Shown: in pieces, positions 25,001 through 49,218 of the stretch | Layout of the letters: each line of letters opens with the position of its first letter | Position numbering within the stretch: the first letter of the stretch is position 1 | Origin: Gemmatimonas sp. | GTDB lineage: Bacteria > Gemmatimonadota > Gemmatimonadetes > Gemmatimonadales > Gemmatimonadaceae | NCBI GenBank assembly: GCA_031414535.1 | Contig: JANNVQ010000014.1 | Span: forward strand, 32,001 to 96,000 | Direction: 5' to 3' | Length of the DNA: 64,000 nucleotides | Position numbers and translations under genes: made by a program | The notes under the pieces: model-generated | The model's input: only the letters and a program-made list of their open reading frames with translations | The model's database searches: none | Told to the model about the DNA's origin: nothing

Positions 25001-28000
25001 AACTCGCGCAACTCTACCTGCGTGGATGTCCACGCGAGGTCGAGGGCACGCTGCGCCGCGTGCGGCCCGTGATAGCGGTCTGCCAACTCGAACGCCCGCG
25101 CACGCGTTTTGGCGACGAGCGTCGTGAATGCCACCGATGCTGATTCGCCGGGGGCCAAACGTACTCGTGTACGAATGGCAAACACAGGGTCGAGTACCGC
25201 GCCGATGGTGCCGGAGAGTGGCGAAGTCGTCGCGAGGGCCTCGGGGTCGCGCGCCGAACGTCCGCGACTAATAAAACGGTCACGGTCTGTCTCGTACTCG
25301 ACGTCGCCCACGCGCGAACGGCCAGTATCGGCCACGTGCACCATCCAGAGTGGCGCCTCCGTTGCGCTGCGAGGGCGCCGCGTGGCCGTGATGGCGTGGC
25401 ACCACTCGTGCCACTCTGTCTCCACGAACAGCTTGCTGAACGCCGGATGCGCACGGTCCGTCGCGCGAGGCGCCATGACGATTTCACCGTAGCTCGTGAG
25501 CTCTACCTCGCGCGTGGTTCTGCCGTTGTTCGTCACGGTGACGCGGCGCACTTCAGCGGAATCTTCCGGCACCACCACAATTTCCATCCGCGTCTCGATC
25601 ACGCCATCGGTGCGAAGCATCGTCACACGGTCCGTAGCAAGCCACACGCGGTATGAATCGGCTGCACGGCTCGTCGGAGCGTGCCCCGCTGACCAATAGT
25701 TGCCACTGCTCATGTCGCGGACGTAAATGAATTGCCCCATGTTGTCTCTGGTGCCGTCGGCGAGCCAGCGCGTGATGCTGGTGTCTTCGAAGCGACTGTA
25801 GCCGCCGCCTGCGTGCGTCACCATCACGGTGAGCGGGGCATGGCCGAGCAGGGCGACGTGAGGCCGCTGCGTATCGGGGGTGTCGTACTCACGGACCACG
25901 GGCCCCGAAAGCGTGGCATCCAGCGCCATCTCATCATCAGAGCGCAGCGGCGGGTCCTGATACTCCAAGCGGCGAGGTACGCGCTCGTCGAGCAACAGCG
26001 ACGTGGCGCGCACCATTGGATCAGCGTGGAAGCGCTCCTGCCAAATACGCTCTGACAATGTGTTGGTCAGCGCCACCAGTGTCATCCCGACATGATGAGC
26101 CATATAGCAGCGGACCAGTGCGAAGGTACTTCCCACTGCGGGGCGCGTGTAGTCGAGCGCGTCGTAGAAGCCCAGTTCGCCGTAGGCGCCCAAGAGTTCG
26201 AGCGCGCGCAAGTTGGCGAGTGCGCCCTCCGGGTCTAGCATCGTCGCGAGGCCGGAAGCGTAGGGCGCAATCACGTGATCACGTCCAAGACCACGCTTCA
26301 GTGCGAGGTCAGGGACGCCGAATGCGCGGTACTGATAGGTGAGATGGCGATCACGCACGTTGTACGCGCTCTCGCTCACCCCCCAAGGCGAACCCCGCTC
26401 GGCGCCATAGCGTACCTGCCGCTCAAGGGAGATCTCGCAGGCATGACCGAGCAGGGTCTCGCGGAAGGTGCGCATCACGAGGATGGGCATCAGGTACTCG
26501 AACATCGAACCGCTCCACGACACGAGCGCCGGCTTGCCGTGCGCCCATGTCATCGTGCGCCCCAGATGGAACCAATGCTCGGGTGGCACTTCATCTTTGG
26601 CCACCGCAATGAAGCTGGCCAACCGTGCCTCCGACGCGAGGAGGTCGTACGAAGAGTCGTCCGCCCGGTGCGTAGAAGCGTTGTAGCCAATCACGAAGAG
26701 CTTGCGTTCGGCGTCGTACAGGAAGCGGAAGTCCATCTCCTGCACATACCCGTCCGCCGCAACAGCGAGGCGCGTCAGGCGCGACGCGAGTGCAGAGTCC
26801 CGCGCCGCGTACGTGTCGGCATACTCCAACACGGCTTGGCGGAGCGCAATCAGATGCCCCGCTAGATTCCCGCTATCCACCGTTGAGACGTAGGTGGGCT
26901 CTAACACACGTAGGTCCGGCAGCGCATACCAGTTCAGAAAGTGGCCGCGATGCCTCTCCAGCTTCTCGAGAGTTGTGAATGCGCGTTCGAGGCGATCAAC
27001 CATCACGCTTGCTTCAATGAAGCCAAGGTCGTGCGCACTCACGGTGGAGAGCAGCTGCAACCCGATGTTGGTAGGCGAGGTCCTGAGCGCCACAACCTGC
27101 GTTGGATCCTCCTGAACATTGTCTGGTGCCAGCCAGGCACTCTCCTCGTTCACGAAGCGCGCGAAGTACTCCCAATGCGCGCGTGCGTAGCGCCGCGCCA
27201 ATTCGCGCGACTCCTCAGACAGCGGTGCAATGAGCCGCGCGCGCGGCAAACTCGTCGCGTAGGCTACCAATGGTGCCGCTAGCCAGAGGCCCACCAGCGG
27301 TACCACCGGCATGAACGGAAGATGGCTCCAACTCCCAACAATGACTGCGGCGGTGGTCGCCGGCCACATCGCCAGCACCGTGCCCACGATCGATTGCGCA
27401 TTCGAACGCTCGGTGAGCGCGGCAGACTGCCACTCGAGCAGCATGCGTTTGGTGACGAACAGGCGCCAGAGCGTGCGAATGATGGCATCCGCCGAGATCC
27501 ACGCGTGATGCGGAAGAAACATCAGAGCGAGCACAATCTGCTTGGCGCTCGTGACCGCATCGCGCCACACGGCGCCGTAGTACGCGCGCAGGGACCGTTC
27601 GGTAGCGGGGGCAACCAGCGCGATGAGCAGGCCAATGACCCAAGGCGCTGCCACGGCCAGGATACCAAGGACGGTCCACTGCCAGAGTGCGCCCGGCAGC
27701 AGGGTCCAACCGGCGAGGATGAAGACGAACTGTGCCAGTTCAGTCGTGCTGCGTCGCAGGTTGTCGAGAATCTTCCCGCGCGCGAGCAGACTGAGGCGGT
27801 TGCGTTCGTCGCCTTGCGGCCCTGGGACCTGCCCCGTGAGCCAGCGCAGCAGTTGCCAGTCACCGCGAATCCAGCGGTGCTTGCGCCGCGCGTGTGGGAG
27901 ATAGCGTGAGGGATAGTCGTCGAAGACCGTGAGGTCGGTGACGAGTCCGGCGCGCGCGTAGTTTCCCTCGATGAGATCATGCGAGAGCAGTGTGTTCTCA

Positions 28001-30188
28001 GGGAAGCGCCCGTGGGTCGCGGTCTCGAAGGCGTCCACGTCGTAGATGCCTTTCCCTGTGAAGCTGCCCTCGCCGTACAAGTCCTGGTACACGTCCGACA
28101 CCGCTGCGGTGTACGGGTCTACGCCGGGGTGGCCGGAATGCACGCCCGAGAAGAGCGTGTGATGCGCGCTGGCCAGCGAGACACCCACGCGTGGCTGCAG
28201 AATCCCGTAGCCGTGCACCACAGATCCGCGTTTTTCGTCGTACACAGCTCGATTCAGTGGATGCGCGATGGCCCCCACAAGCGCCGCCGCGGTATCTGGC
28301 GGCAGCACGGTGTCGGCATCGAGCGTAATGACGTACTTGACGCTGGTGAGTAACGCGACCTTACCCTCAATGTGCGTGAATGCCTTGGCGGCTCCGCCGC
28401 GCAGGAAGCGATTGAATTCCGCGAGCTTTCCGCGCTTTCGCTCCCAACCCATCCACGCACCCTGCGCCGCATTCCAATGGCGGGCGCGATGAAAGAGATA
28501 AAAGGCATCATGCGTCGCTGGGGCGTGACGGGCGTTGAGCGCGCGGATACCCTGCACCGCTGCGGCGATAATCGCGTCATCGCTCGGCATCGTCGCGTTG
28601 GGCGCATCCGTGAAATCGCTGAGCACGGCGAAGTGGAGATGCGGCCCCTTGTTGGCGATGTACTGCACTTCAAGATTCGACAGCGCTTCGTGCACGGCTT
28701 CCACGGAAGGAAACAGCGTGGGAATCACGACGGCCGTGCGATAGACCGCCGGAACGCCGCTCACACTAAAATCGAGCTTGGGCAACACCCGAGGCGGGAG
28801 GAGCCACGTAATCAACTGGCTCATCACACTGACGGAGACGTCGAGCGCCGGAAGGAACGCGATTCCAAGCACCAGCATCCAGGTGGCGACGCTGAGCGGC
28901 TCCGCGGTGCTTGCCACCATGGCTACAGGCAGCATCGCTGCGACGCCGGCCAACGCAATGCCTCCCACATACACGAGATTCGGGTGGCGCAGCGTCCAGC
29001 GATGCACGGCCAAGGAAGTCGGTGCAGCATAGTGCACTGCGGCTTCCAGCTCAGCAACTCCGTGGTCCACGAGCCAAAAGCCCACGTGCGAGCGACGAGG
29101 GTCCGGCAAATGCTTCGCGGCGAGGCCAACGGCGACGCGAGCGACTTCCCGCTCATCAGCGTCCGCGTATTTGGCGATGCGCTCCACCGCGTGGCGGTAG
29201 CTATCGCGTGTGGCGAAGGTCATCCCGGCGTACTCGCCCTCTGGATCTTTGCGGAGGATGACCTCCACCGCGCTGAGGCTCTCCACGAAGTCTCGCCAGT
29301 CGAGTTGCGCGATGCGCCGCAGGCTGGTGATGCTGTTGGCCATCATGAGCGTGGTGAGAGCCAATCGTTCGGCAGCGCGAGTGCTGGCCTCAGTTGGCCC
29401 AATGCCCTCTTCGGCAAACCACCGCTCGAGACCTACCAACGGCGCGGTTGCCCCGGCGGTGGCGCGTAGTTGTTGGAGCAGCCGCGAAACGAAGGCGGGC
29501 TGGACCGATGGACGCGCCTCGACGACACTAGCGAGCGCGTCGCGCATCCCTGCCTCGGAGCCATCGGAGGTGCGCAGGATACGCTGAGCCCACTTGTCGG
29601 CCAGCTCGACTTCCTCTACCCGCTGCGCCGAGCGCAATGCCATGCGACGAACGCTTTCAATCAGGCCGAGCCGAAGCATCGAGGGAACGGCCCAGAGCTC
29701 ACCGAGGCTGAGTGGTGTCTTCTCTTGATACGCGGCCACGAAGAGTTCGACGTCCGCCGCGTCAATGCGGCCCTCTGTGTGCGAGATGAGCGTGATGGCG
29801 ATCTCGTACACACGCGGATACTCCGCCAAGGGCCCGTTCAGCACGAGGGCTAACTCACGGAAGTACGATTCCGGAAGACTCTCCTCGACATGACTCGCGT
29901 GCTCTCGCACCACGTGAAAGTTGTCCAAGAGCCAGTCGCCCGAAGGACCGACGTCTGTTCCGCGCGCGGCCGCGGCCGAGAGCTCCGCGTACACGTCGTC
30001 AAGGATGACGCGCGACTGTGCCAAGCGGATGAGCAGACGCGCAGGGCGCGGCCGTAGGCGTCTCTCGCGGACGATCTGCTGTTGGCCGCAAGCTGGCGCG
30101 CGCGTGCGCCCAGATGCTCAGCGCCGAGGAGCTCGCCTCGGATCGGGCCCGCATACACGTCTTCCACCGTTGGCGGCGGTCTGCTCAT
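22018..30188 (-). CDS. cgs: Cyclic beta-1,2-glucan synthase (GT84 + glucoamylase-like + GH94 phosphorylase domains); reading frame broken by a frameshift near 30085
   Basis: WLLDNF, LGELWAVP, WMGWERKRGKL, ITLDADT, LLSHDLIEG, RWIRGDWQ, RTSPTNIGL, YDLLASEARL, YQSGGAYGFRDQLQD, GDWNDGMN, RENGAQYTH, WYTGSA. The typical N-terminus (PIRGELLGAEHL) lies in a different frame starting at ATG 30188. Confidence 0.9.
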
Positions 30189-30655
30189 GTAAGCGCGGCG
30201 GATCCATCCAGGAAGTCGCAACACTGCCGTTCCCGATAAAGGAGATCACGCCTCGTAGCTGCGACACACGCGTGGTCTTCTAAGCATACCACAATGTCGC
30301 GCGCTGAGGTCGCTGAGATTGTGGGGGGTGAGGAACCGACAGCGCTTAGCGCAATGCGACGGCGGGCCTCGCTACAGGCCAAACCATCGAACGAGACATC
30401 CTTCTCACTGGCCGCTAGCCGATACGGATCAATCGCCACCACTCTGAATCCACTCGCGATCAGTCGCTCGGCGAGTGGCTCTAGGCGCGCCGTGCCTCCG
30501 AGCAGACCGCTCAGCAGGACGACTGTTGGGCCGGACCCGCGCACGACCACGGCGGGCGGCGTCACTGGCGCATGCATCGCATCGAGCCGCGACGCATCGC
30601 CAATCACTGGGCAAATCACACTCACGAGCAGCAGCAGGGCACGCGCAGCAGTCAT
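30185..30655 (-). pseudogene. Truncated alpha/beta-hydrolase (N-terminal fragment only)
   Basis: Signal-like start, then GSGPTVVLLSGLLGG...LIASGFRVVAID...SFDGLA; hydrolase-like sequence stops near 30380, before any nucleophile elbow. Confidence 0.55.
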
Positions 30656-30721
30656 TGCGGTGGGTGAGGTTTCCTGATGATGGGAGTCTCTCCACACCGC
30701 GCGGAGACAGGAGCCAGTTCG

Positions 30722-31355
30722 ATGACCCGTGTTAAGGACCACCAGCCGAATCGCCCAACTTGGTTCGATCTCGCGACCCGCGAGCCTGAGCACGCGCGTC
30801 AGTTCTACAAGACTGTACTCGGCTGGGAGTACGACGTCAGCGGCCCGGAGTTCGGCGGCTACGCCATGGCGAAGTGCGGCGATGACGTTGCCGCGGGCAT
30901 CGGTGCGCTCGCTCCCGGTCATCCGTCACCGCCCGCTTGGACGGTGTACTTCGGCGTCACGGATGCCGAAGCCACCTCGGCAAAGATCACTGCGAAGGGT
31001 GGCAAGGTATTCGTGCCAGCGATGGACATCGGTGCGTTTGGACGCATGGCCGTGTGTGAGGATCCGACGGGGGCCGTGTTCGGGCTCTGGCAGCCGAACG
31101 AGCACCGAGGCGCCGGTGTGCTGAATGAGCCAGGCGGCATGGCGTGGAGCGAGGTCAACACTCGGGACCCCAAGGCCGCCGCACTGGATGGCCTACTTTG
31201 CCGTGGCCGACGTGGACGCGGTGAAAGCCAAGGTGATTGCCGGCGGAGGCAGCGTTCCCTTCGGTCCATTCGACAGTCCATACGGCCGCATTATCGTGGT
31301 GATGGACCCACAGGGTGCCGCGGTGTCGCTCATTGAATTGTCGGAGACGACCTAG
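30722..31355 (+). pseudogene. Two-domain VOC/glyoxalase-family protein with an internal deletion and frameshift
   Basis: Domain 1 is intact (WFDLAT...FYKTVLGW...WTVYFGV...DPTGAVFGLWQ). Domain 2 begins WSEVNTRDPKAAA, then jumps frame directly to PPHWMAYFAVADVD...DPQGA. Confidence 0.8.
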
Positions 31356-35773: not shown

Positions 35774-36829
35774 CTAGGCCGCAATCCGTCGGTGCCGTCC
35801 CACCAGCGGCATCACCTGCGCGGCGAATCGCTCCATCTCCTCCAACTGCGGGCTGCACTGCAACAGCAAGAGATCAACCCCAACTTTCCCGAGCGCATGC
35901 ACGCGTTCGGCGACCTGCTCTGCTGTGCCAATCAGCCCGGTGCGCAGTCCACGATTGGACACCGAGTAGTCCTGCACGCTGAGTTGTTGATCGAGCTGGG
36001 TGTTGGCAATCCAGTCCTGGAAGTTGCCGTAGCCAGGTGAGTGCTCTGCCACGTTGGTGATGCGTGCGAGCTCTTGCTGCACCTCGCGTTCGTTGTCGCG
36101 CACGATAGCGTACGCGGCTACGCCAAACTGCATCGGCGGCAATCCGGCACGTTCGCGGCGCGCGCGCAGATCGGCAATCTTCGGTGCAAGGCGCTCCGGG
36201 GTGTCTCCGTGCATCACGTAGGCATCGCAGCGCGTGCTGATGAGCGTCTTGGCAGCCTCCGATTCACCGCCGGCATAGAGCGGCGGACGCGGGCGCGACA
36301 GACTGCGCAGTGGCGGCGGTTGCACCACCAGCTCATCCACTTGGTAGTACTTGCCATTGAAGCTCACGCTCGGCTCCGACCACGCGCGCGAGAGCACTTC
36401 GAGCCATTCGGCGGTGCGCGCGTAGCGGTCATCGTGTTCATCGAAGGTGCTGCCATAGCGACGCGCTTCGTCCTTCCACCAGCTCGACACCACATTGAGC
36501 GAGAGACGCCCATTGCTGATGTGATCGATGTTGGCCGCCTGCTTGGCCAACTGTGCGGGGTGATGGTAGCTAGGGCGCACCGCCACCATCAGCTCTAGCG
36601 AATGCGTCACCGCGGCGAGTGCGGCGGCCGTGCTCCAGGCATCCATCGCGGGCGCATTCACACCCTTGATGTCGTTCAGGAACAGCTCGGCGATGAGCGT
36701 GAGGTCGTAGCCGAGCTCTTCACTGCGCCGCGCGAGGCGCTGAACGTAGTTCCAGGTGGACTCCATGCCCTCGTCCTCAACGTTCCGCAGCCAACCGCCG
36801 AAGACCGGTAACCAATATCCGTAGCGCAT
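35774..36829 (-). CDS. LLM-class flavin-dependent monooxygenase (SsuD/SfnG-like)
   Basis: YWLPVFGG, DAWSTAAALAAVT, AVRP, ANIDHISNGRLSLNVV, PPLYAGGES, LIGTAEQVAER, EEMERFAAQVMP. Confidence 0.88.
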   Translation of the reverse strand: MRYGYWLPVFGGWLRNVEDEGMESTWNYVQRLARRSEELGYDLTLIAELFLNDIKGVNAPAMDAWSTAAALAAVTHSLELMVAVRPSYHHPAQLAKQAANIDHISNGRLSLNVVSSWWKDEARRYGSTFDEHDDRYARTAEWLEVLSRAWSEPSVSFNGKYYQVDELVVQPPPLRSLSRPRPPLYAGGESEAAKTLISTRCDAYVMHGDTPERLAPKIADLRARRERAGLPPMQFGVAAYAIVRDNEREVQQELARITNVAEHSPGYGNFQDWIANTQLDQQLSVQDYSVSNRGLRTGLIGTAEQVAERVHALGKVGVDLLLLQCSPQLEEMERFAAQVMPLVGRHRRIAA

Positions 36830-37800
36830 TAGCGCACCCCGGCGAGCAGTCCGGCCCGCTGCTCAAGCGCGTCAACGAGTGGCTGCCAGGGATCGAAGCC
36901 GATGACATTGGGCGCATCGGCGACGAAGTTGGAAAGTGCGTTGACGTCGTAGTAGTAGTGCTGGCCGTCGCGATCATCCACGAGCAACTCGATGCCGCCA
37001 ACATCCAACTGCGCCGCCTGCGCGATGGCTTCCACCTGCGCAATGATTGCATCGCTGGGGCGCGTGCCTTCCACCCGCATGCCTGTCTTGGGCGCGTCAA
37101 TGGCGCAGGCGCCGCGCACGAGTTCCACGCCATTCGTGGTCTGGCAGGCATCGGCGGGGCAGAGGTCAAACGAGCCCGTGGCCGGATGCACATTAATGGC
37201 ATAGAGGAACTTGCCGTTCAGCGTCTCCACTCGCGTGATGTGTCCGTTGCGCAGTGGTGCGGACTCTTGCACCAGCGCAACGCCGTCCACGCCGAGCTGC
37301 ACTTCGCCGCGCGCGGTGGCATCGCGCAGGGCCTCGGGCGTGTCGTAGCGCACGATGCCGGCTCCGCTGCCTCCAATGTTGGCCTTCACCAGCACCGGAA
37401 AGCGCAAACCTTCTGCGGCCTTGGGCGCGAGTGCCGGGTTATTGATCACGCGGCTGGCTGGGAACGGCAGCCCCAGCTTGGACAGCAGGCCAAGCTGCGT
37501 GGCCTTGGACAACTCAAGCGAGTACACGCCAGAGCCGTTCACCACGGGAACGCCGAGCCGTTCTACGTGATGCAGCCAGTGCAACGTGGAGAACAGACTG
37601 TTGCCGTGCCCGCGCAGGTAGGCGCTGGGGCTCGCCCGGTTGAAGACCAGGGAGTATGGCAGGTCTGTCTCTGAAGGGTCGAACGCGTGCGCATCGGCGG
37701 CTAGGCGTTCGTAGGGGAGGCCGCGGCGCTCAAGTTCAGTGAAGAGCGGACGGAACCAGTCGGGGTGCTCATAGAGCACAGCAATCGGACGGTGAGACAC
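36829..37800 (-). CDS. RimK-like ATP-grasp ligase
   Basis: YEHPDWF, FNRASPS, VVNG, SKATQ, FPVLVKANIGGSGAGI, LVQE, GGIE, YYDVNALSNF; Cys-rich CPADAC...C loop; GTG 37800 chosen because it lies downstream of the leader terminator. Confidence 0.8.
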   Translation of the reverse strand: MSHRPIAVLYEHPDWFRPLFTELERRGLPYERLAADAHAFDPSETDLPYSLVFNRASPSAYLRGHGNSLFSTLHWLHHVERLGVPVVNGSGVYSLELSKATQLGLLSKLGLPFPASRVINNPALAPKAAEGLRFPVLVKANIGGSGAGIVRYDTPEALRDATARGEVQLGVDGVALVQESAPLRNGHITRVETLNGKFLYAINVHPATGSFDLCPADACQTTNGVELVRGACAIDAPKTGMRVEGTRPSDAIIAQVEAIAQAAQLDVGGIELLVDDRDGQHYYYDVNALSNFVADAPNVIGFDPWQPLVDALEQRAGLLAGVR

Positions 37801-37837
37801 AGGCAACTCAGGGCGAAGGATTTCGCCGACCCACACG

Positions 37838-37869
37838 AAAAAGCCCGGCAAGCAAAGGCGCCGCCGGGC
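37838..37869 (-). terminator. Intrinsic terminator in the 5' leader of the ATP-grasp/LLM operon
   Basis: Minus strand GCCCGGCGGC-gccttt-GCTTGCCGGGC followed by TTTTT, immediately 3' of the aptamer. Confidence 0.8.
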
Positions 37870-37872
37870 ACT

Positions 37873-37928
37873 CGCGTTTTAGCTCCTTGTTTAACGTGGC
37901 GGCAATAGGCGGCAAAAGACCACGGGGA
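37873..37928 (-). ncRNA. SAM-II (SAM_alpha)-like riboswitch aptamer
   Basis: Minus strand TCCCCGTGGTCTTTTGCCGCCTATTGCCGCCACGTTAAACAAGGAGCTAAAACGCG: P1 CGTGG/CCACG, U-rich L1, TTGC pairing with GC(T)AA in the pseudoknot, A-rich TTAAACAAG loop, as in SAM-II leaders. Confidence 0.8.
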
Positions 37929-37943
37929 CAATCAGTTGGAAGG

Positions 37944-37972
37944 AGGATAAAGCCGCCGCAGACCGAGGTCAA
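37944..37972 (-). promoter_or_regulatory. Putative sigma70 promoter driving the riboswitch leader
   Basis: Minus strand TTGACC-N17-TATCCT ending 15 nt before the aptamer. Confidence 0.65.
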
Positions 37973-38059: not shown

Positions 38060-40534
38060 ATGACCACGATTTTGCCTGAGCAAGCTTTGGCGGCTGATTC
38101 CGCCGAGGCCGACGCCGTCGCATCGTTCCGCACCGCCATCCTCGACAAGCTCGTCACGTCGGTGGGCAAAGACGCGCCGCACGCGCGGCCGCGCGACTGG
38201 CTGGTTGCGACGTCATTGGCGGCTCGCGATCACGTCATTCACAATTGGATGGACGCCACGCGCCGTACCTATGCGTCCAACGCCAAGCGAGTCTATTACT
38301 TCTCGCTGGAGTTCCTCATTGGCCGCATGCTCGGCGACGCCCTCAACAACATGGGCCTCACCGAAGTGGCGCGTCAGGCGCTCGCGGAACTTGGACAGGA
38401 CCTCGATACCATCCGTGAGATTGAACCGGATCCTGCGCTTGGCAACGGCGGACTCGGACGCCTCGCCGCCTGCTTTATGGAAAGCATGGCCACGTTGGGC
38501 ATCCCTGCCTACGGCTACGGTATCCGTTACGCGCACGGCATCTTTCGCCAGCAGCTGCGCGATGGCTGGCAGGTAGAGTTGCCGGAGGATTGGCTGACGG
38601 GCGGAAACCCTTGGGAGTTTGAGCGGCCAGAGGTGGCATACACGGTGGGCTTTGGGGGCTCCGTCGAGCAGGTAGTGGATGAGATGGGCCACACCCGTGC
38701 CGTCTGGAAGCCAGCCGATCAAGTGAAGGCCTTGGCCTACGACACACCGATTACGGGTTGGCGCGGCGCGCACGTCAATACGCTGCGCCTCTGGCGTGCC
38801 CGCGCGATGGATCCGATTCAACTCGAGGATTTCAATCGCGGCGATCACGTGGGCGCGCTCGCGGACCGCATGCGCCTCGAAGCGATTTCGCGGGTGCTCT
38901 ACCCCAGCGACGAGACCGCCGCGGGGCAGGAGCTACGCCTGCGGCAAGAGATGTTCTTCGCCAGCGCCTCATTGCAGGATTTGCTGCGCCGGCATAAGCG
39001 CCAGCACGGCACGCTCAACACCCTGCCCGACCACGTCGCCATTCAGCTCAACGATACGCACCCGGTAATTGCCATCCCGGAGTTGATGCGCCTGCTGATG
39101 GACGAGCATGGCATGCCTTGGGAGCGGGCGTGGGAGATTGTGCGCTCGGTGTTCAACTACACCAACCACACACTGCTCCCAGAGGCCCTGGAGAAGTGGT
39201 CGGTGTCGCTGATGGAAAGTTTGCTGCCGCGTCACATGCAGATCATCTATCTCATCAACGCTGAGCACCTCGACGCGCTGCGCATGCGTGGCGGTATCCC
39301 GGCGGCTCAGCTCTCCACGGTATCCTTGATTGAGGAGAACGGTTCGCGCTCGGTGCGGATGGGCAACTTGGCCTTCCTCGCCGCCCGCCGAGTGAACGGC
39401 GTGTCAGCGCTGCACACCGATCTGATGAAGCGCACGGTGTTCGCCGATTATCACGCGCTCTACCCCGAGCGCATCTGCAACAAAACGAACGGCATCACCT
39501 TCCGTCGCTGGTTGATGGAAGCCAACCCAGAATTGACACGGCTCATCTCCGACGCCATCGGTCCGAAGTTCAAGGACGACTTTGAGCGCTTACGGGACCT
39601 TGAACCATTCGCCGACGATGCCGCATTCCGCGAGCGCTTCATTGCCATGCGACTACGCAAGAAGCAGGCCCTCGCGAGCAAGATTATGTCTGAGCTCGGC
39701 GTGCGCGTGGATCCCGAGGCGATGTTCGATGTGCAGATCAAGCGCATCCACGAATACAAGCGTCAGCTGCTCAACATCCTTGAGACCGTCGCCATCTACA
39801 ACGCCATGCGCGCGCGGCCGCACGAGGATTGGGTGCCGCGGGTTCGCGTACTCGCCGGCAAGGCGGCGGCGGGCTACCACACGGCCAAGCTCATCATCAA
39901 GCTCGCCAACGACGTAGCCAAGGTCATCAATCGCGACCCCGTCATCCGCGACCGCTTGAAGCTGGTGTTCATGCCGAACTACAACGTGAGCCTCGCCGAG
40001 CGCATCATCCCGGCGGCGGACCTCTCTGAGCAAATTTCTACGGCCGGCATGGAAGCCTCGGGCACAGGCAACATGAAGTTCGCGCTCAATGGTGCGCTGA
40101 CCATTGGCACGCTCGACGGCGCGAACATCGAGATCCGCGAGCACGTGGGTGAGGAGAACATCTTCATCTTCGGCTTGCTGGCCGACGAAGTGACGGAGCG
40201 CCGGAAAAAGGGATTGGATATGGAGGAGACGATTGCCGCATCGTCTTCACTGGCGCAGGCGCTTCAGGACCTTGAGCAAGGCGTGTTCTCGCCCGACGAC
40301 CGCAATCGGTATCGCGGACTCGTCCAGCAACTGCGGCATCACGATCACTTCTTGGTCTGCGCGGATTTTGATTCGTATCACGGCCGCCAGTACGAGGTGG
40401 CGCGGGAGTGGCAGCAGCCGGCCAAGTGGTGGCGGAAGGCCGTGCTAAACACCTCGCGCATGGCTTGGTTCTCCTCCGATCGCACCATCCGCGAGTATGC
40501 CGCGGAGATCTGGCGTGTCGAAGCCGTCCGATAG
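38060..40534 (+). CDS. glgP: Glycogen/maltodextrin phosphorylase
   Basis: [45 protein letters not shown] motif [20 protein letters not shown]. Confidence 0.97.
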
Positions 40535-42914
40535 GGACGACGCGCCGAAGAAGAAGACGGCTGCCAAGCAAAAGGCAGCCGTGACGACAAGTGCGGCTAA
40601 GAAGGCTCCGGCTAAGAAGGCTCCGGCTAAGAAGGCTCCGGCTAAGAAAGCTCCGGCTAAGAAAGCTCCGGTCAAGAAGGCTTCGGCTAAGAAGTCGGCG
40701 TTAAAGTTGCGCGCCGCCGCAACGCCAGACACTCCAGCGTCCTCGCTCGATTCTGCCGCAGTCGCCGCCCTGATTGCGGGCAGGCACGCCGATCCCTTCT
40801 CCGTGCTCGGCATTCATATAGAACAGGGCGCCACTGTGCTGCGCGCCTTCGTGCCTGGCGCAGAAGGGCTTGAGGCCATCGACGCGCTCGGCAATGTGCT
40901 CGCGCGTCTGACACGCGTTCACGCCGAAGGACTCTTCGAGGGCCCAATCGAAGGGCGGCCCGCATACCGCTTGCTCGCGCGCCGCGACGCAGAATCGTGG
41001 TCGCTCGGCGACCCCTACGCGTTCGGGCCCGTGCTGGGCCCAATGGATGACTGGCTCATCGGCGAGGGCACGCACGCGCAGCTCTACGATCGGCTTGGCG
41101 CGCATTGCATGGAGCACGAGGGCGTGCGCGGCACCCACTTTGCCGTCTGGGCGCCAAACGCCCAGCGGGTCTCCGTACTCGGTGACTTCAACCAGTGGGA
41201 TGGTCGGCGTCACTCCATGCGCCTGCGGCACAGCACCGGTGTGTGGGAGATCTTCGTTCCCGATGTTGGTGAGGCCGCGCTCTACAAGTACGAACTCATC
41301 GGACCCGATGGCTCACTGCTACCCTTGAAGGCAGATCCCGTTGGGTTTGCCGCAGAGCTGCGGCCCAACACCGCATCCGTCGTGCGCGACCTGTCTCGCA
41401 TCCGCTGGAATGACGCAGCGTGGATGCAGGAGCGCGGCGAGGGCGAGCAACGCCGAAAGCCGATGAGCACCTACGAGGTGCACCTCGGCTCTTGGCGCCG
41501 AGGAGAGGGCGAACGCTGGCTTAGCTACGATGAGCTGGCCGACCAGTTGATTCCTTACGCGACGGAGATGGGCTTCACGCATCTCGAGTTGATGCCGGTG
41601 AGCGAGCATCCGTTTGATGGCAGTTGGGGCTATCAACCGGTTGGGCTCTTTGCGCCTACGTCCCGCTTTGGTGATCCCGAGGCATTCGCACGCTTCGTAG
41701 ACCGCTGCCACGTGGCGGGCCTGGGCGTGATCATTGACTGGGTGCCGGCACACTTCCCCTCGGACGCGCACGGCCTGGCTCGCTTTGATGGTACCGCGCT
41801 TTACGAGCACGAGGATCCGCGGCTCGGCTTCCATCCCGACTGGAACACGCTGATCTACAATTTTGGCCGGCGTGAGGTGAGCAACTTCCTTATCGCCAAC
41901 GCGCTATTCTGGCTCGAGGTTTATCACATTGACGGCCTGCGTGTAGACGCCGTGGCCTCAATGCTCTACCTGGACTACTCGCGGAAGGAAGGCGAGTGGA
42001 TTCCCAACCAGCTGGGCGGTCGCGAGAATCTTGAGGCGGTGGATTTCCTACAACGCCTGAACGAGACGGTCTACGCTCGCGTACCCGGTGCCATCACGCT
42101 GGCTGAGGAGAGCACGGCGTGGAGCGGCGTCTCGCACCCCACGGACGCGGGTGGACTCGGGTTCGGGTTCAAGTGGAACATGGGGTGGATGCACGACACC
42201 CTAGAGTACATGCAGGAGGAGCCGGTCCACAGGCGCTGGCACCACGACAAGATGACCTTCGGCTTGGTGTACGCGTTCACGGAGAACTTCGTCCTGCCGC
42301 TTTCGCACGACGAAGTCGTGCACGGCAAGGGCTCACTGCTCGACCGGATGCCGGGCGACGCTTGGCAGAAGTTTGCGCAGCTCCGCGCGTACTACGGCTT
42401 TATGTGGGCGCATCCGGGCAAGAAGCTGCTGTTCATGGGTTGCGAGTTCGCGCAGGGCAAGGAATGGAACGTCGGCCACTCGCTGGACTGGCATCTGCTC
42501 GACATTGACCTACACCGAGGCGTGCAAGCGGTGGTGCGCGACTGCAATCACGGCCTGCGCGAGCACGCTGCGCTGTATGCGCGCGACTGCGAGGGCGAAG
42601 GCTTCCGGTGGATTGATGTGGATGACCGTGACAACTCCGTATTCGCGTGGCTGCGTTTCGGCGGCGATGGCACGCCGCCCCTAGCCTGCGTAACGAACAT
42701 GACACCCGTGCCGCGCGAGGGATATCGCATTGGCCTGCCGCGCACGGGTCGCTGGCGTGAAGTGCTCAACACCGATTCTGCCATCTACGGTGGCTCCAAT
42801 CTCGGAAACGGCGGCGCCATCCTCGCCGAGCCGAGGGCGAGCCACGGATTTGACGCCTCGGCTTCGCTCTTGCTCCCGCCCTTGTCCACGCTGTGGTTCG
42901 TTCACGAAGGCTAA
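40497..42914 (+). CDS. glgB: 1,4-alpha-glucan branching enzyme with N-terminal AKKAP-repeat extension
   Basis: [61 protein letters not shown]; alternative start GTG 40581 still includes the repeats. Confidence 0.96.
40596..40700 (+). repeat. 15-bp coding tandem repeat GCTAAGAARGCTCCG x5 plus 2 degenerate units (AKKAP)n
   Basis: Units begin at 40596, 40611, 40626, 40641, 40656, 40671 and 40686. Confidence 0.95.
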
Positions 42915-42932
42915 TCCACGTGAGGCTGCACG

Positions 42933-44201
42933 ATGACTGACCGCCTGACCTATTCCTCGCCGGTCTCGCGCTCCACAATGGCGTACGTGTTGGCGGGAGG
43001 CCGAGGCTCGCGCCTGATGGAGCTCACGGACCGTCGGGCAAAGCCCGCTGTGTACTTCGGCGGCAAGTCGCGCATCGTGGACTTTGCGCTCTCCAACGCG
43101 CTCAACACCGGCATTCGCCGCCTCGCCGTGGCCACGCAGTACAAGGCGCACTCGCTCATTCGCCATCTGCAGCGCGGCTGGAGCTTTTTGCGTGTGGAGC
43201 GCAACGAGAGCTTTGATATCCTACCGGCCTCGCAGCGCATCTCCGAGGACAAGTGGTACTTGGGTACGGCCGATGCTGTGTACCAGAACATCGACATCAT
43301 TGATGGCTATGGTCCGGAGTACCTGCTCATCCTCGCGGGTGACCACGTGTACAAGATGGACTATGAGCGCATGCTCGTTCAGCACGTGAACAGCGGCGCA
43401 GACGTGACGGTGGCCTGCGTAGAAGTGCCGGTTGCCGAGGCATCGGGATTCGGCGTGATGCACGTGGGCGAGAACGATCGTATCGTGGACTTCTTGGAAA
43501 AGCCGGCGAATCCGCCGGAGATGCCGGGCCGGCCGGGTTGGGTGCTGGCCTCAATGGGCATCTATGTGTTCCGTCGCGATTTCCTGCACGAGCAGCTGGA
43601 GCGCGATGCGGCAGATCCCACATCCTCGCGTGACTTCGGCAAGGACATCATCCCGTACTTGGTGAAGAACGCCAAGGCCGTAGCGCATCGCTTCAATGAG
43701 TCGAGCGTGCGCGGACAGTCCGAGCGCGGCGACTACTGGCGGGACGTCGGCACGCTCGACGCATACTGGCAGGCGAACATTGACCTGACGGACATCGTGC
43801 CGGATCTCGACATCTACGATCACGACTGGCCCATCTGGACCTACGGAGAGATCGTGCCGCCGGCCAAGTTCGTGCACGATGTACCGGACCGGCGTGGCGA
43901 AGCGGTGTCCTCGCTAGTGTCAGGTGGCTGCATTGTCTCGGGCAGCTTCGTACGCCGTTCCCTCCTCTTCACTGGAGTGCTCGCGCACTCGTATTCAAAG
44001 GTGGACGCGAGCGTGATCCTTCCCTACGTACACATCGGCCGCCACGCGCGGCTGAGCAACGTGATCGTGGACAAGGGCGTGCGTATTCCTGAAGGCCTCG
44101 TGATTGGCGAGGATCCTGAGCTCGACGCGCAGCGCTTCCGGCGCACGGAGAAGGGCATCTGCCTCGTCACGCAACCTATGATTGACCGGCTCGGGGCGTG
44201 A
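42933..44201 (+). CDS. glgC: Glucose-1-phosphate adenylyltransferase
   Basis: [65 protein letters not shown]. Confidence 0.97.
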
Positions 44202-45646
44202 GCGCCAAGCCTCTACACGTACTCTCCGTCGCCTCGGAGTGTTTCCCGCTGGTGAAGACAGGCGGACTTGCCGATGTGGTGGGCGCATTGCCTCAGGCTT
44301 TAGCCGCGGAGGATATCGCAGTCGAGACTCTGCTGCCGGGCTATCCTGCCGTACTTGAGGCCTTGCACGGCGCGCCGGTTCTGCAGCGGTACGAGAACTT
44401 GATGGGCGGGCCGGCACAGCTACGTGCCGGAGTTGCAGCAGGACTGGCGCTCTACGTGCTCGATGCGCCGCACTTGTTTGCACGACCAGGAAATCCATAC
44501 GTGGACGCAGACGGCCAAGATTGGCCAGACAATGCCCTGCGCTTTGGGGCACTCGCGCGCGCTGCCGCTGACCTTGCTCGTGGCGTTCCGCGCGCCCCAC
44601 GACCAGACGTGGTCCACGCGCACGATTGGCAAGCGGGACTCGTGCCCGCCTACCTGCGCTACACGCCCGGCGCGCGCGTCCCCACGGTGATGACCGTGCA
44701 CAACCTCGCCTTTCAGGGACGTTTTCCGGCGGAGTCTCTTGCTCCTCTTGGGCTGCCCGAGGACGCCTTCCAAATGAATGGCGTGGAGTACTACGGCGGC
44801 GTGGGCTTCCTGAAGGCAGGACTCGCTCTGTCGGATCGCGTCACGACCGTCTCGCCCACCTATGCCGCTGAGATCTGCACCAGCGAACACGGAATGGGGC
44901 TGGATGGTCTGTTGCGCCAGCGCGGTGGGGATTGGCACGGCATTCTCAACGGACTCGATGTGCGCGTATGGGACCCCGCCACCGACGAGCACATCGCACA
45001 GCGCTACGATGCAAAACGGCTTGGACAGCGCGCGGTGAACAAGGCAGTCCTTCAGCAAAAACTCGGCCTCGCTCTAGAGCCACGCACGGTGCTCTACGGC
45101 GTCGTGAGTCGCCTCACGTGGCAGAAGGGTATGGACCTCCTGCTCTCGGTGTTGCCAGAGTTGGTGGCTGGAGGCGCGCAGTTGGCGCTGCTAGGGGCAG
45201 GCGATGCGGCACTCGAAGCAGGTTTCGCCGATGCGGCGGCAACCTATCCTGGCCGAGTGGGCATATTGCGCGGATACGACGAGTCGTTGGCGCACAACAT
45301 TCAAGCCGGCTGCGACGCCTTGCTTGTGCCTTCTCGCTTTGAGCCCTGCGGCCTCACGCAATTGCAAGCATTGCGCTACGGCGCCATTCCAGTGGTGGCA
45401 AGGACCGGTGGGCTCGCAGACACCGTGGTTGACGCCAACGAGATGGCTCTGGCCTCACGCGCGGGTACCGGCATCGTATTCTCGCCCGTTACACGTGACG
45501 CACTGTTGCATGCCCTCGGCCGCACGCAGGCACTCTACGCTCAAGCCTCCCTCTGGCGAGCCATGCAGCGCCGTGCGATGGCCACGGATGTCAGCTGGGC
45601 CCGGCCGGCCGCTCGCTACGCAGCGCTCTATCGCGAAATCGCGTGA
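44198..45646 (+). CDS. glgA: Glycogen synthase (ADP-glucose)
   Basis: [49 protein letters not shown]. Confidence 0.97.
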
Positions 45647-48600
45647 CGGGAGTGCAGGCGCAGGCCGGATTCCCGGCGCCCTTAGGCGTGACCCTGCAGG
45701 ACGACGGCGTAAACGTCGCCGTGTTCTCGCGCTACGCAACACAACTTGATTTCTGTGTTTTCGACGAGACCGGCGCGCGTGAAGTCGCGCGCATCCCGCT
45801 GCCCGAGCGCACGGGCGATGTGTGGCACGGCTTCGTTCCAGGCATTCGCGCGGGAGCACGCTACGGACTGCGCGCTCACGGCGAGTGGAGCCCGCGAGAC
45901 GGGCATCGCTTCAATGCGGACAAGCTGCTGATTGATCCGTATGCGCGAGCGCTCGACCGCCGCATCGCGCTGCACGAGGCGATGTTCACCCAAACTCCCT
46001 CTGGGACGATGAATCCCGAGGACTCAGCCGGCGTGGTGCCCAAAGCCATCGTACTGGGAGCCTCGCCGGCATGGGAGCCTCAGCGTCCGCGCCGCCCGTG
46101 GAGCGAAAGCGTCGTGTACGAAATGCACGTGCGTGGCTTCACCAAACAGCATCCCGATGTTCCGCTTCCGCTACGCGGCACCTTGGCAGGACTCGCACAT
46201 CCGGCGGCTCTTGATCACCTCGTGAAGCTGGGCATCACGGCCGTTGAGCTACTGCCCATCGCCGCTGCCGTGGACGAGCGCCACCTGATGAAGCTTGGCC
46301 TCCGGAACTACTGGGGCTACAACACCATCGGCTGGATGGTACCTGATCCTGCTCTCGCGCCCGGCGGCATCGCCGAGGTCCGGCAGTGTGTAGAGTCGCT
46401 GCACGCGGCAGGCATCGAAGTGCTCCTCGACGTTGTGCTGAATCATTCGGGCGAGAGCGATGCGATGGGCCCCACGCTATCACTGCGCGGCCTCGACAAC
46501 GCTAGCTACTACCGCCTCGTGCCCGGGCACGCGGAGCGCGACATCAATGATACGGGCACGGGCAACACGCTCGCGCTCGATCGCGCCCCCGTAACGAAGC
46601 TTGCGCTCGATACCCTGCGCTACTGGGCCAGCGCCGCGGGCGTGGATGGGTTCCGCTATGACCTCGCCACCACGCTTGCGCGCCGCGAGAGTGGATTCGA
46701 TGCGTCGGCACCGCTGCTCGCGGCCATTGATGCTGATCCACTACTCCGCACGCTCAAGCACATCGCCGAACCCTGGGATATTGGGCCGGGTGGATATCAA
46801 CTCGGCGCATTCCCTGCAGCCTGGGGCGAGTGGAACGACAAATTCCGCGATTGCGTACGTCGCTATTGGCAGGGCTTCGGCGATGCACCGGCTGAGCTCG
46901 CAACACGATTAGCTGGCTCACCCGATGTGCTACGTGGACGAGGGCGGCCGCCTTCGCGCTCCGTAAACTTCGTGACTGCGCACGATGGCTTCACCCTCGC
47001 CGACCTCGTGAGCTATGCGCACAAGCACAATGAGGCCAACGGCGAGCACAACCGCGACGGCACCGACGCCAACCATTCGTGGAATCACGGCGTGGAAGGC
47101 CCCACGGACGATCCGCGAATCGTCGAGGCGCGCCGGCGAGATGCCCGCGCATTGCTCGCCACACTGCTCTCAGCCCGCGGAACGCCCATGCTCTGCATGG
47201 GCGACGAGATGGGACGTAGCCAGCGCGGCAACAACAATGCGTATGCGCAGGATAATGAGATTGCTTGGGTGGACTGGGGCTCGACGGATCGCGCCCAGCT
47301 CGCCTTTACCACGCGTATGCTCGCGCTTCGTCAGCGCCACAGCGCCCTCCGCGAAGACCGTTGGCTGACCGGCGGACCGCGCTCAGGCGGTGCGACTCCC
47401 GACGTGCGTTGGCTGCGCGCCGACGGCCAGCTGGCCTCCGGTTTGGATTGGGGCTCGGGACGGATGAGCGTACTCGTGGCCTTACTTTCGGACTCGGTCG
47501 AGCTTCGTGTGGCGGTGTGCCTCAACCCCACGAATGACGCTGTAGTGCTCCGTCTCCCTGCCGCCGCCGAGGGTCGGCACTGGGTCTGCGCCCTGGATAC
47601 CGCAGCCGATCCCCTGCTCTTCTCCGAGTGGACCGTAGATAATCCACAGACCCTAAACCTCCCCGGGCGAGCCGTGCTGGTGTTCGCCGAGACGTCTTCG
47701 CTTGATGGTGGGGTAGCGCAAGACGCCAGTCTGCACCAGCGTTCAACATCTATGACGTTTCCACGCACGGCAGGACTGCTCCTGCATCCCACATCGCTTC
47801 CCGGCGCCGGCGGCATTGGTGACCTCGGTCCCGAAGCGCACAACTTCGTTGAGTTCATGGCCGCCGCTGGCATCAAGCTGTGGCAGGTGCTGCCGCTTGG
47901 TCCCACTGGATACGGCGACTCACCATACCAATGCTTCTCCGCCTTCGCGGGCAATCCAATGCTGGTGCACGTGCCCGGCGCTGACGGAGACTTTGACGCG
48001 AAGCAGATTGAATGGGCCCGCGTCATTCCGCATAAGCGTTCAGCGCTCCGCCGCGCGACTGCCGCGATGTCCAGAGATGCCGCGTACGCACTGTTCTTGA
48101 GTGAGCAGGCTTGGTGGCTCGAGGATTATGCGCTCTTCATGGCCCTCAAGGAGGCCCACGGCGGCGTGGAGTGGACGCGCTGGGATGAAGGGGCCCGACG
48201 TCGTGATCCAGCGGCGCTCGCGCAATGGCGCGAGCGTCTCGCCGAGGACATCGAGCACCATCGGCGCGTGCAACACCTGTTTTTCCAACAGTGGCGGAGC
48301 GTGAAGGCGCACTGCGCCGAGAAGGGCATCAAGATCATGGGTGACCTGCCCATCTATGTATCGCATGATTCGGCAGACGTGTGGGCAGCACCGCAGTATT
48401 TCATGCTGCGTGACGATGGACGTCCCACAGTGCAGGCCGGCGTGCCGCCAGACTACTTTAGCGCCACCGGTCAGCTCTGGGGTAATCCCATCTATAACTG
48501 GGACGCCATGCAGGCAGATGGGTTTCAGTGGTGGATCCGTCGCACGCGCGCGATGTTTACGATGGTCGATGTGGTGCGCGTAGACCACTTCCGCGGCTTT

Positions 48601-49218
48601 GCCGCGTACTGGGAAGTGCCGGGCGAGGACAACACCGCCATCAACGGACGCTGGGTGAACGCGCCGGGTGACGCGCTGTTCTCGGCCATCACCGAGGCCT
48701 TGGGCCCGCTGCCGATTGTCGCGGAGAATCTTGGCCTGATTACGGAAGAGGTCGAGTCGCTGCGTGCGAAGTTTGGCTATCCCGGGATGAGCATTCTGCA
48801 GTTCGCCTTTGGCGCCGACGGCTCGGCGAATGATTTTCAACCGCACACGTATCCACGCGAGCGCGTGGTGTACACCGGCACGCACGACAACGATACGGTG
48901 GTAGGCTGGTGGAACTCTGTTCCTGGCGCGGACTCCACGCGTACGCAGGCAATGATTGACGCAGAGAAGGCCTTTGCTTGCCGCTATCTCGGCACTGATG
49001 GCCGCGAGATTCATTGGACAATGATTCGGGCGGCGCTCGCGTCGGTGGCCGACACGGCGATTCTCCCGATGCAGGATTTGCTGGGCCTCGGGAACGAGGC
49101 GAGGATGAACCTTCCGGGCCGTCAGGCCGGCAACTGGGGGTTCCGCTTCACCTGGGACGAAGTCCGCACGGAGACTGTGCGTCGGCTGCGTGAGATGGTT
49201 GACCTTTATCAGCGATAG
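45643..49218 (+). CDS. glgX-malQ: In-frame fusion of glycogen debranching enzyme GlgX (45643-~47690) and 4-alpha-glucanotransferase MalQ (from ATG 47752)
   Basis: Glg[44 protein letters not shown]. MalQ/GH77: [56 protein letters not shown]. Confidence 0.93.

Follow-up and report, generated by a model that had tools for sequence, protein, structure and literature searches.

A putative SAM-II-controlled ATP-grasp/monooxygenase module and its probable role in methionine and cysteine supply

A 64,000-nucleotide (nt) stretch of Gemmatimonas sp. DNA (GenBank assembly GCA_031414535.1, contig JANNVQ010000014.1, positions 32,001 to 96,000 of the forward strand; hereafter the window) carries on its minus strand a compact unit in which a predicted S-adenosylmethionine (SAM) riboswitch of the SAM-II type precedes two overlapping genes, one for a protein of the ATP-grasp superfamily and one for a luciferase-like flavin-dependent monooxygenase (LLM). 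This two-gene module very probably serves the supply of methionine (Met) and cysteine (Cys) from organic sulfur under the control of SAM. The role is well supported, because SAM-II riboswitches, SAM-I riboswitches and Cys/Met leader peptides, three independent kinds of regulator, converge on the module in its homologues. As to the chemistry, it is possible, with somewhat less than an even chance, that the two enzymes carry out a two-step salvage in which the LLM and then the ATP-grasp protein would turn methionine sulfone, via homocysteine sulfinate, into homocysteine; this estimate covers the proposed chemistry together with the kind of substrate.

Results

With the ATP-grasp protein as query, 80 homologue loci were retrieved, 36 of them titled Gemmatimonadota; loci of this and the other sets are given below by L numbers. 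An earlier note on this DNA had claimed a SAM-II-type OFF switch for the unit and had proposed a covariance-model check. In that check, the aptamer (37933-37860) matched the full-length Rfam SAM_alpha model with 35.8 bits (E 1e-6); as the gathering score is 36, a whole-window Rfam scan at gathering level reported nothing. The same leader precedes 24 of the 36 Gemmatimonadota loci (23 detected by pattern and one more by a custom RNA model), and the claim is supported. Other signals were weak when taken one at a time. The promoter pattern TTGACC-17-TATCCT was found once against 0.6 expected by chance, a terminator consensus scan gave partial stems only (2 found, 2.6 expected), and the folding energy of the 151-nt leader was no better than that of shuffled sequences (z -0.89). 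Since promoter, terminator and folding energy are singly at chance level, the case for the leader elements is made by the Rfam match and by conservation. It may be noted that a TTG...-16/18-TA..T promoter pattern stands at the equivalent place in 24 of 26 related leaders.

Conservation was examined in an alignment of 24 leaders (the window and 23 others). The aptamer core segments UUU, UUGC, and GCUAAA, which we take to be the SAM contacts, are invariant in 24/24. The 15 aptamer pairs of the H-type pseudoknot (P1, P2a, P2b) are kept in all but one cell and are mostly invariant; six terminator pairs are kept in all 24 leaders, four of them with a one-sided change. Pairing of P1, pseudoknot, and terminator together extends to 99.8% of 504 cells with only one two-sided change, and 29 of 500 shuffles scored as high for the whole structure. 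Hence, what the alignment displays is conservation rather than covariation. The antiterminator GCCGCC/GGCGGC gave a similar picture (99% of 144 cells paired, zero two-sided changes). Two pairs look compensatory. One is A-U in the Rfam consensus, C-G in the window, and G-C in a second copy in the same genome, described below. The other, at columns 29/62, is U-A in 14 leaders, A-U in six, and unpaired in four (0/500 shuffles), a pair picked after inspection and with the relatedness of the leaders uncontrolled.

When the leaders were cut before the 3' arm of the terminator, GCCGCC paired with GGCGGC in 22 of 24 minimum-energy folds; full-length leaders folded into the terminator, pseudoknots being outside the folding model. 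On this basis, the leader is predicted to act as a transcriptional OFF switch. The second SAM-II riboswitch of the genome (L001:1494-1609, on contig C45 of the window genome, G000) scored 40.8 bits, has the same terminator design, and leads metF-metH, the usual SAM-II context. In a search of 94 sources with the custom RNA model, strong matches were confined to the window, L059, and the metF copy, and no SAM-II was found outside Gemmatimonadota loci.

Elsewhere, other regulators of sulfur amino-acid supply stand in front of the module. SAM-I riboswitches precede the genes in 8 of 69 Rfam-scanned loci (L068, L081, L084, L085, L099, L107, L108, and L225), and in five loci, all from Bacteroidota, the SAM-I is followed by a leader peptide that ends in one to five Cys codons. 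Short Cys/Met-rich leader open reading frames (ORFs) were present in 18 of 103 upstream segments and in 2 of 940 random segments of the same loci, a comparison in which the leader-peptide criterion was fixed after examples had been seen and the control segments were mostly coding. Five Gemmatimonadota loci combine a SAM-II riboswitch and its terminator with a Cys/Met-rich leader and second hairpin, in tandem (Table 1). Combinations of riboswitch and leader peptide like these would lend themselves to gating by two inputs, SAM and charged Cys/Met-tRNA. The neighbours of the homologue loci include amino-acid permeases, MetY, cystathionine lyase/synthase, and YeeE-type transporters, and MetQ/MetN-like parts of an ATP-binding cassette transporter adjoin the module in L074. 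These regulators and neighbours, found by the kind of neighbourhood survey that had been suggested earlier, bear out the sulfur/methionine role then proposed.

Some further arrangements were seen among these loci. L038, L047, and L051 share a leader motif and a terminator about 100-200 nt upstream of a flavin mononucleotide (FMN) reductase gene; the motif had no Rfam match in the one locus examined and may be an unknown regulatory RNA. L225 has three SAM-I switches, and both L225 (1234-3189) and L231 (2493-4468) encode an LLM of the NtaA/DmoA family and an FMN reductase beside the pair. In L081, L084, L085, and L099, the ATP-grasp gene is followed on its 3' side by genes for a redoxin and an alpha/beta hydrolase, a SAM-I, cystathionine lyase/synthase, and two YeeE-type sulfur transporter genes; no LLM is present there.

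The sulfur metabolism of the hosts was examined next to the module. The assembly of the window genome is 98.4% complete and those of three other carriers (G025, G027, G029) are 99% complete. Searches of the window genome gave no match for NIR_SIR (sulfite reductase), PAPS reductase, MetX, MetA, or homoserine dehydrogenase, and none over cut-off for CysE or MetY, while genes for MetF, MetH, and CysK/CBS-like and CGL/CGS proteins are present. In G025, G027, and G029, we found no homoserine dehydrogenase, NIR_SIR, or MetY; each has the full three-gene operon behind Met+Cys leaders and a homocysteine methyltransferase-domain protein. Cells with these gaps cannot make Met from sulfite, sulfide, or methanethiol, and a SAM-repressed salvage in such hosts should therefore yield Met or homocysteine itself. 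Because sulfite reductase, homoserine dehydrogenase, MetA/X, and MetY were not found but metF-metH is present, the product of the module probably keeps the amino-acid backbone.

In the window, the ATP-grasp ORF starts with GTG, in register with the ATG of its homologues, and its stop is joined to the LLM start by a TAATG overlap. The earlier note had read this overlap as coupling of the two genes, within a minus-strand unit of promoter, SAM-II-like aptamer, terminator, ATP-grasp gene, and LLM gene; every part was recovered in its place, and the operon indeed lacks a flavin reductase and a met gene. The reductase is missing only locally, since in 12 of 84 loci the first gene of the operon encodes an SsuE-like FMN reductase (five confirmed by Pfam, the rest by clustering). 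Two such SsuE-like reductases had no match in the window genome, which has two PF01613 flavin reductases.

The two partners differ in how regularly each occurs with the other. Starting from the ATP-grasp gene, an LLM gene lies at most 400 nt 3' of it in 59 of the 80 loci and 0.5-3.2 kb away in seven; it is absent in 10, and four loci end too early, so that 10 of 76 informative loci have the ATP-grasp gene without the LLM. With the LLM as the starting point, matches came from 31 of the 401 genomes sampled in one phylum, and 29 LLM loci were retrieved from them (the centre genome and one partial match were left out). The same ATP-grasp gene lies upstream in 26 of these loci, a different ATP-grasp subfamily in two, and neither in one. 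Thus, an LLM has an ATP-grasp partner in 28 of 29 loci, while the ATP-grasp protein often stands alone. Gene order is reversed in a Bacillus-type clade (about 30% identity); the LLM is present in 24 of 80 loci of this clade and clearly absent in 17 that have at least 1.2 kb of sequence on both sides. In one Bacillus chromosome record, a SAM-I, the LLM gene, and an ATP-grasp gene with the CPADxC motif stand in a row. Over most loci, the ATP-grasp gene comes first.

The second, unrelated ATP-grasp subfamily takes the place of the first next to this LLM on two Deinococcus plasmids and in two further genomes. The Deinococcus deserti locus adds a D-cysteine desulfhydrase and a racemase beside this partner, which resembles D-Asp ligase. 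In four Cytophagales loci without an LLM, a CxxC redoxin is the next gene after the ATP-grasp gene, and some Acidobacteria have a small ORF between ATP-grasp and LLM, for which no Pfam match was found. A fusion search returned eight longer proteins, three with an LLM Pfam mark plus P0273. P0272 (720 aa), in which ATP-grasp and LLM are joined by a plausible linker, is the only clean-looking fusion and a weak lead; the other apparent fusions look like frameshifted assemblies. Complex prediction for the two window proteins gave a score of 0.00 and was not used.

The pair is common, with at least 8000 matches (8000 of 8000 scored candidates). In the lineage of the window genome, the gene was missing from all 24 genomes searched in its genus and present in 4 of 16 others of the order (58-61% identity), and an 89% identical protein is present in a Gemmatimonas record. 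In a Bacteroidota sample, 3 of 251 genomes matched. This patchy distribution may reflect transfer.

The LLM falls among the class C two-component enzymes: it exceeds the cut-off of PF00296 (204.5 bits), has the TIM-barrel fold, and retains the FMN-phosphate His/Tyr/Ser residues. The nearest structures are 3RAO (54% identity) and 8VW6 (47%), followed by SfnG, the nearest characterised relative, and MsuD. The profiles of both named families were missed, with 244.4 bits for SfnG (TIGR04021, cut-off 382.95) and 174.5 bits for SsuD/MsuD (TIGR03565, cut-off 518.2). Residues were mapped over 55 LLM sequences by hidden Markov model (HMM) profile alignment with gaps. According to PMC11588060, SfnG binds dimethylsulfone (DMSO2) through W11, R55, Y60, W121, F267, W285, Y296, and N297. 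SfnG W11, W121, H136, Y140, and N297 correspond to W6, W117, H132, Y136, and N292, all invariant in 55/55. F267 is kept as Y/F, the cage residues Y60, W285, and Y296 are replaced, and the charged residues R15, E48, D53, K55, and R293 are conserved. With the sulfone contacts W11, W121, and N297 kept, the cage residues replaced, and charges conserved, a larger polar sulfone fits; the pocket would suit an uncharged S=O group in a compound whose charged tail is larger.

The same mapping bears on sulfonates, of which the earlier note had listed methanesulfonate among the compounds to assay. In MsuD, W195, R225, and R296 are each essential (PMC8234197); they correspond to H207, A238, and N292 in the LLM. 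This loss, with no sulfite reductase found in the window genome, speaks against sulfonate substrates. It likewise makes it very improbable that the LLM is an SsuD-like sulfonate monooxygenase releasing sulfite, with the ATP-grasp protein as an accessory, although automatic annotation and the depositors' title of 8VW6 ('Crystal structure of SsuD') suggest it and NIR_SIR occurs in 16 of 19 carriers outside Gemmatimonadota. Within Gemmatimonadota, it was not found in 25 of 31 carriers. No paper on 8VW6 was found; for 3RAO and 8VW6 we found no substrate in print, and the papers found use them only as search or comparison models.

The predicted model of the ATP-grasp protein (predicted local distance difference test, pLDDT, 90) is closest to ArgX (Z 27.9, root-mean-square deviation (rmsd) 2.4, 277 aligned), followed by RimK (Z 25.6) and LysX (Z 25.5), at 16-19% identity. 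Membership of the superfamily is supported by the fold and by the conserved K139, G144, G146, E271, D285, and N287. The protein stays below all family cut-offs, RimK included (Pfam 20.2 bits, cut-off 21; TIGR00768 50.7 bits, cut-off 143.4), and its motifs differ from the RSN loop and ExN motif of that family. By profile and motif, both module proteins belong to known superfamilies and fail the named families examined. The DxN motif had pointed to an ITPK1-like kinase, an idea that was set aside because ITPK folds rank far lower than RimK/LysX (Z 18.6 versus 27.9). The ESM Atlas returned only unnamed ATP-grasp clusters.

The distinguishing feature of the protein is the CPADxC motif. Its first cysteine, C214, aligns with the Asn of the RimK FRSN loop, which presumably closes over the site of the acyl phosphate. 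Of the 63 full-length distant homologues, 37 retain the catalytic residues; the Cys pair is present in 32 of these and its first Cys in three more. Another 12 homologues have neither the catalytic residues nor the pair. A further 14 were scored as non-catalytic and keep Cys, many of them being truncated or frameshifted. CPADxC is present in 82/82 loci of the 30%-identical Bacillus-type clade, and the second subfamily has a terminal CxC in 119 of 120 close homologues as well as in the two Deinococcus proteins. Such cysteines are dispensable for an amide ligase but required by the chemistry of sulfiredoxin (PMC12093155).

These data bear on the order of action. It had been proposed earlier that the ligase activates or tags an organosulfur substrate and that the LLM then acts on it. 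With this order, the ATP-grasp protein would N-acylate (e.g., glutamylate) an S-alkyl amino acid that the LLM would then dealkylate. Acetylation precedes CmoJ or YxeK in Bacillus subtilis in an analogous way. The scheme agrees with the closest folds, all amide ligases, with the leading position of the ATP-grasp gene in most loci, with the D. deserti racemase, and with the adjacent NtaA/DmoA-family LLM in L225 and L231; moreover, LdmS, an Asp-Met ligase of the ATP-grasp type, is known to be under S-box control (PMC9486568). However, the occurrence of the two genes is asymmetric in the other direction, the active-site-loop Cys pair is unexplained by amide ligation, and no recurrent deacylase or peptidase was found among the neighbours of the homologue loci. 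LdmS was not among the Protein Data Bank (PDB) matches of either ATP-grasp protein, and identification of the Deinococcus partner as LdmS was rejected on this search. We consider tagging before oxidation unlikely, and the earlier order of steps was not sustained.

Table 1. Positions of the module elements in the window and of related features at homologue loci
Feature	Position	Strand	Basis
Sigma-70-type promoter, -35 TTGACC / -10 TATCCT, 17-nt spacer	37944..37972	-	pattern scan and conserved position in related leaders
SAM-II aptamer (Rfam SAM_alpha); pseudoknot core 37924-37873	37860..37933	-	covariance model and alignment of 24 leaders
GCCGCC, 3' side of P1; predicted antiterminator strand against GGCGGC at 37865-37860	37898..37903	-	inferred
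Intrinsic terminator: hairpin 37869-37843 and U5	37838..37869	-	sequence, fold, and alignment of 24 leaders
ATP-grasp gene, 323 aa, RimK/LysX fold, unnamed family, CPADxC motif, E...DxN metal ligands	36829..37800	-	
Codons of C214-PADA-C219, proposed catalytic and resolving cysteines	37144..37161	-	motif alignment
LLM gene, 351 aa, class C flavin-dependent monooxygenase, 3RAO-type, nearest characterised relative SfnG	35774..36829	-	
Tandem riboswitch-attenuator loci	L034:5786, L037:985, L039:5778, L049:5784, L055:3072		
SAM-I and Cys-ending leader loci	L068:5484-5700 (Salegentibacter), L081:5636-5860, L084, L085, L099		
Second ATP-grasp subfamily, annotated D-aspartate ligase, C-terminal CxC	L106:6596-7876, L107:6701-7981, L181:5677-6918, L182:5640-6875		

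Other parts of the window were also inspected. Positions 38060-49218 hold a glycogen cluster, in which a phosphorylase was assigned by Pfam and we take other genes, by likeness, to encode branching enzyme, ADP-glucose pyrophosphorylase, and synthase; the 1191-aa ORF at 45643-49218 resembles a debranching enzyme fused to 4-alpha-glucanotransferase. A 2668-aa ORF (22018-30024) resembles a cyclic beta-1,2-glucan synthase. The glyoxalase-like (30677-31336) and alpha/beta-hydrolase-like (30185-30922) ORFs show an apparent frame shift or early end, due to assembly error or decay.

Discussion

In the proposed scheme, the module would be switched on when SAM is low and, in many relatives, also when Cys/Met-tRNA is low. 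Without SAM, GCCGCC would pair with GGCGGC of the terminator 5' arm and allow read-through; with SAM, the SAM-II pseudoknot would be locked, the terminator would form, and the genes would be off. In the first step, the LLM, with O2 and FMNH2 from a reductase encoded elsewhere, would act on a neutral sulfone that carries an amino-acid backbone and split its methyl C-S bond. With methionine sulfone, the most likely substrate, the products would be formaldehyde and homocysteine sulfinate, in analogy to the cleavage of dimethylsulfone by SfnG. In the second step, the ATP-grasp protein would phosphorylate the sulfinate instead of a carboxylate; attack by Cys214 would give a thiosulfinate, to be resolved to homocysteine by Cys219 and a cellular thiol or thioredoxin-like protein. 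MetH/MetF would then remake Met, and CBS and cystathionine gamma-lyase would make Cys. Stand-alone copies of the ATP-grasp protein would reduce sulfinates from other sources.

The reasoning behind the second step is as follows. Cleavage of a sulfone by SfnG-type enzymes gives a sulfinate (PMC11588060), which Pseudomonas and Acinetobacter oxidise further to sulfite (PMC13352529, in whose accessible part ATP-grasp and RimK are not mentioned). A cell without sulfite reductase must reduce the sulfinate instead, and this needs activation by ATP and a thiol. In sulfiredoxin, the reaction uses ATP and a Cys and passes through a sulfinic phosphoryl ester (PMC12093155). Sulfinate reduction of this kind would explain why the LLM almost always has an ATP-grasp partner, why the reverse does not hold, why the cysteines are conserved, and why the genes are regulated as they are. 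The wider view that a widespread pathway reverses a supposedly irreversible sulfur amino-acid oxidation, with an SfnG-like oxygenase demethylating methionine sulfone, a twice-recruited ATP-grasp protein acting as a free-sulfinate reductase, and SAM-II, SAM-I, and Cys/Met leaders converging on it, is more tentative than the two steps themselves.

Several points weigh against methionine sulfone and sulfinate reduction. The parts of the unit, their conservation and co-occurrence, the motifs, and the gene absences in the searched assemblies are observations; SAM binding, switching, and every chemical step are inferred. The residue mapping of the LLM depends on a gapped HMM alignment; invariant R293 adjoins the position of MsuD R296, so that one sulfonate contact would be regained by a shift of one residue. 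Of the three SfnG contacts to the sulfone oxygens, R55 has been lost. On the ATP-grasp side, a third Cys is present in 16 of 28 distant homologues, making a metal site possible. The loop Cys of the second subfamily counts for little, since the window genome encodes a distant relative with a Cys shifted by one position. Most copies have no redoxin encoded beside them. The argument for a retained backbone is drawn from a minority of genomes, all incomplete assemblies: homoserine dehydrogenase is present in 42 of 55 carriers (and in 12 of 22 non-carrier relatives), and NIR_SIR in 22 of 50 (6/31 Gemmatimonadota, 16/19 others). As NIR_SIR was found in 0 of 26 same-order relatives, carriers or not, its absence is a lineage trait and not a correlate of the module. 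Finally, 4 of the 24 Bacillus-type loci that bear an LLM have MetY beside the pair (three of these four were scanned), an arrangement that agrees better with methanethiol.

The last observation leads to a smaller substrate: the LLM would convert dimethylsulfone or another methyl sulfone to methanesulfinate, the ATP-grasp protein would reduce this to methanethiol, and MetY would make Met from it and O-acetylhomoserine. The likeness of the LLM to SfnG, MetY beside the pair in L217, L225, L249, and L250, and the frequent homoserine dehydrogenase of carriers agree with this route. Nevertheless, G000, G025, G027, and G029, where homoserine dehydrogenase and MetY were not found, keep the module behind SAM or Met/Cys regulators; half of the SfnG dimethyl cage is replaced, and the linked transporters are amino-acid carriers; we consider the route improbable. 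Slightly less doubtful, and still unlikely, is a sulfoxide or thioether substrate (methionine sulfoxide, S-methylcysteine sulfoxide, or other S-alkyl amino acids), from which the LLM would form a sulfenate or thiol that the ATP-grasp protein traps or transfers via a Cys thioester or disulfide, unless its cysteines bind a metal. A neutral S=O pocket suits a sulfoxide equally, the loss of R55 may mean one oxygen fewer, and the third Cys would be in keeping with it. But thiols reduce sulfenates without ATP, and methionine sulfoxide has direct reductases; the near-obligate ATP-grasp partner would thus be unexplained.

If reduction of homocysteine sulfinate is correct, the ATP-grasp protein would be the first oxidoreductase of its superfamily and would do for small molecules what sulfiredoxin does for a protein. 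The module would then offer organisms unable to reduce sulfite a reductive substitute for the SfnG-MsuC-MsuD route. The pair has two crystal structures without assigned function and no function that we found in print. A literature search, with most subscription papers and the supplements outside it, did not turn up the ATP-grasp/LLM pair, a SAM-II riboswitch in Gemmatimonadota, or a tandem of SAM switch and Cys leader; an earlier listing of the Bacillus operon is possible.

Comparison with known systems

The window switch is probably an undescribed form of SAM-II. It shares with SAM-II (RF00521, SAM_alpha) P1, the UUU loop, UUGC, the GCUAAA tail, and the P2 pseudoknot pairs. It differs from the consensus in having CU for the GA before UUU and C-G for the A-U pair of UUGCA/gUCGCU, and from known SAM-II riboswitches in its predicted terminator/antiterminator output, its Gemmatimonadota-like host, and the non-met genes that it regulates.

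The LLM, of the same family as 3RAO (Bacillus cereus) and 8VW6, shares with SfnG (PDB 8T0W) the fold (Z 41.9, rmsd 2.0, 338 aligned), the FMN residues, and the W11/W121/N297 contacts. Unlike SfnG, to which it is 31% identical and whose family cut-off it misses, it lacks R55, Y60, W285, and Y296; it is coupled to an ATP-grasp protein, whereas SfnG is coupled to oxidation to sulfite by MsuC/MsuD.

The ATP-grasp protein has the three-domain fold (Z 25-28), ATP-binding Lys, and Gly loop of the amide ligases RimK, LysX, and ArgX; in it, the FRSN loop has become F(D/N)LC, the D...ExN ligands E...DxN, and CPADxC has been added. The nearest precedent for an S-box-controlled ATP-grasp enzyme is the L-Asp-L-Met ligase LdmS, which is under S-box control in some staphylococci and tied to sulfur amino-acid metabolism; its partner is the peptidase HmrA and not a monooxygenase (PMC9486568). 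With sulfiredoxin, only the proposed chemistry is shared, namely activation of a sulfinate by ATP and attack by an enzyme Cys (PMC12093155): sulfiredoxin is an unrelated 14-kDa protein acting on a peroxiredoxin-bound sulfinate, whereas our proposal involves an ATP-grasp fold and a free metabolite.

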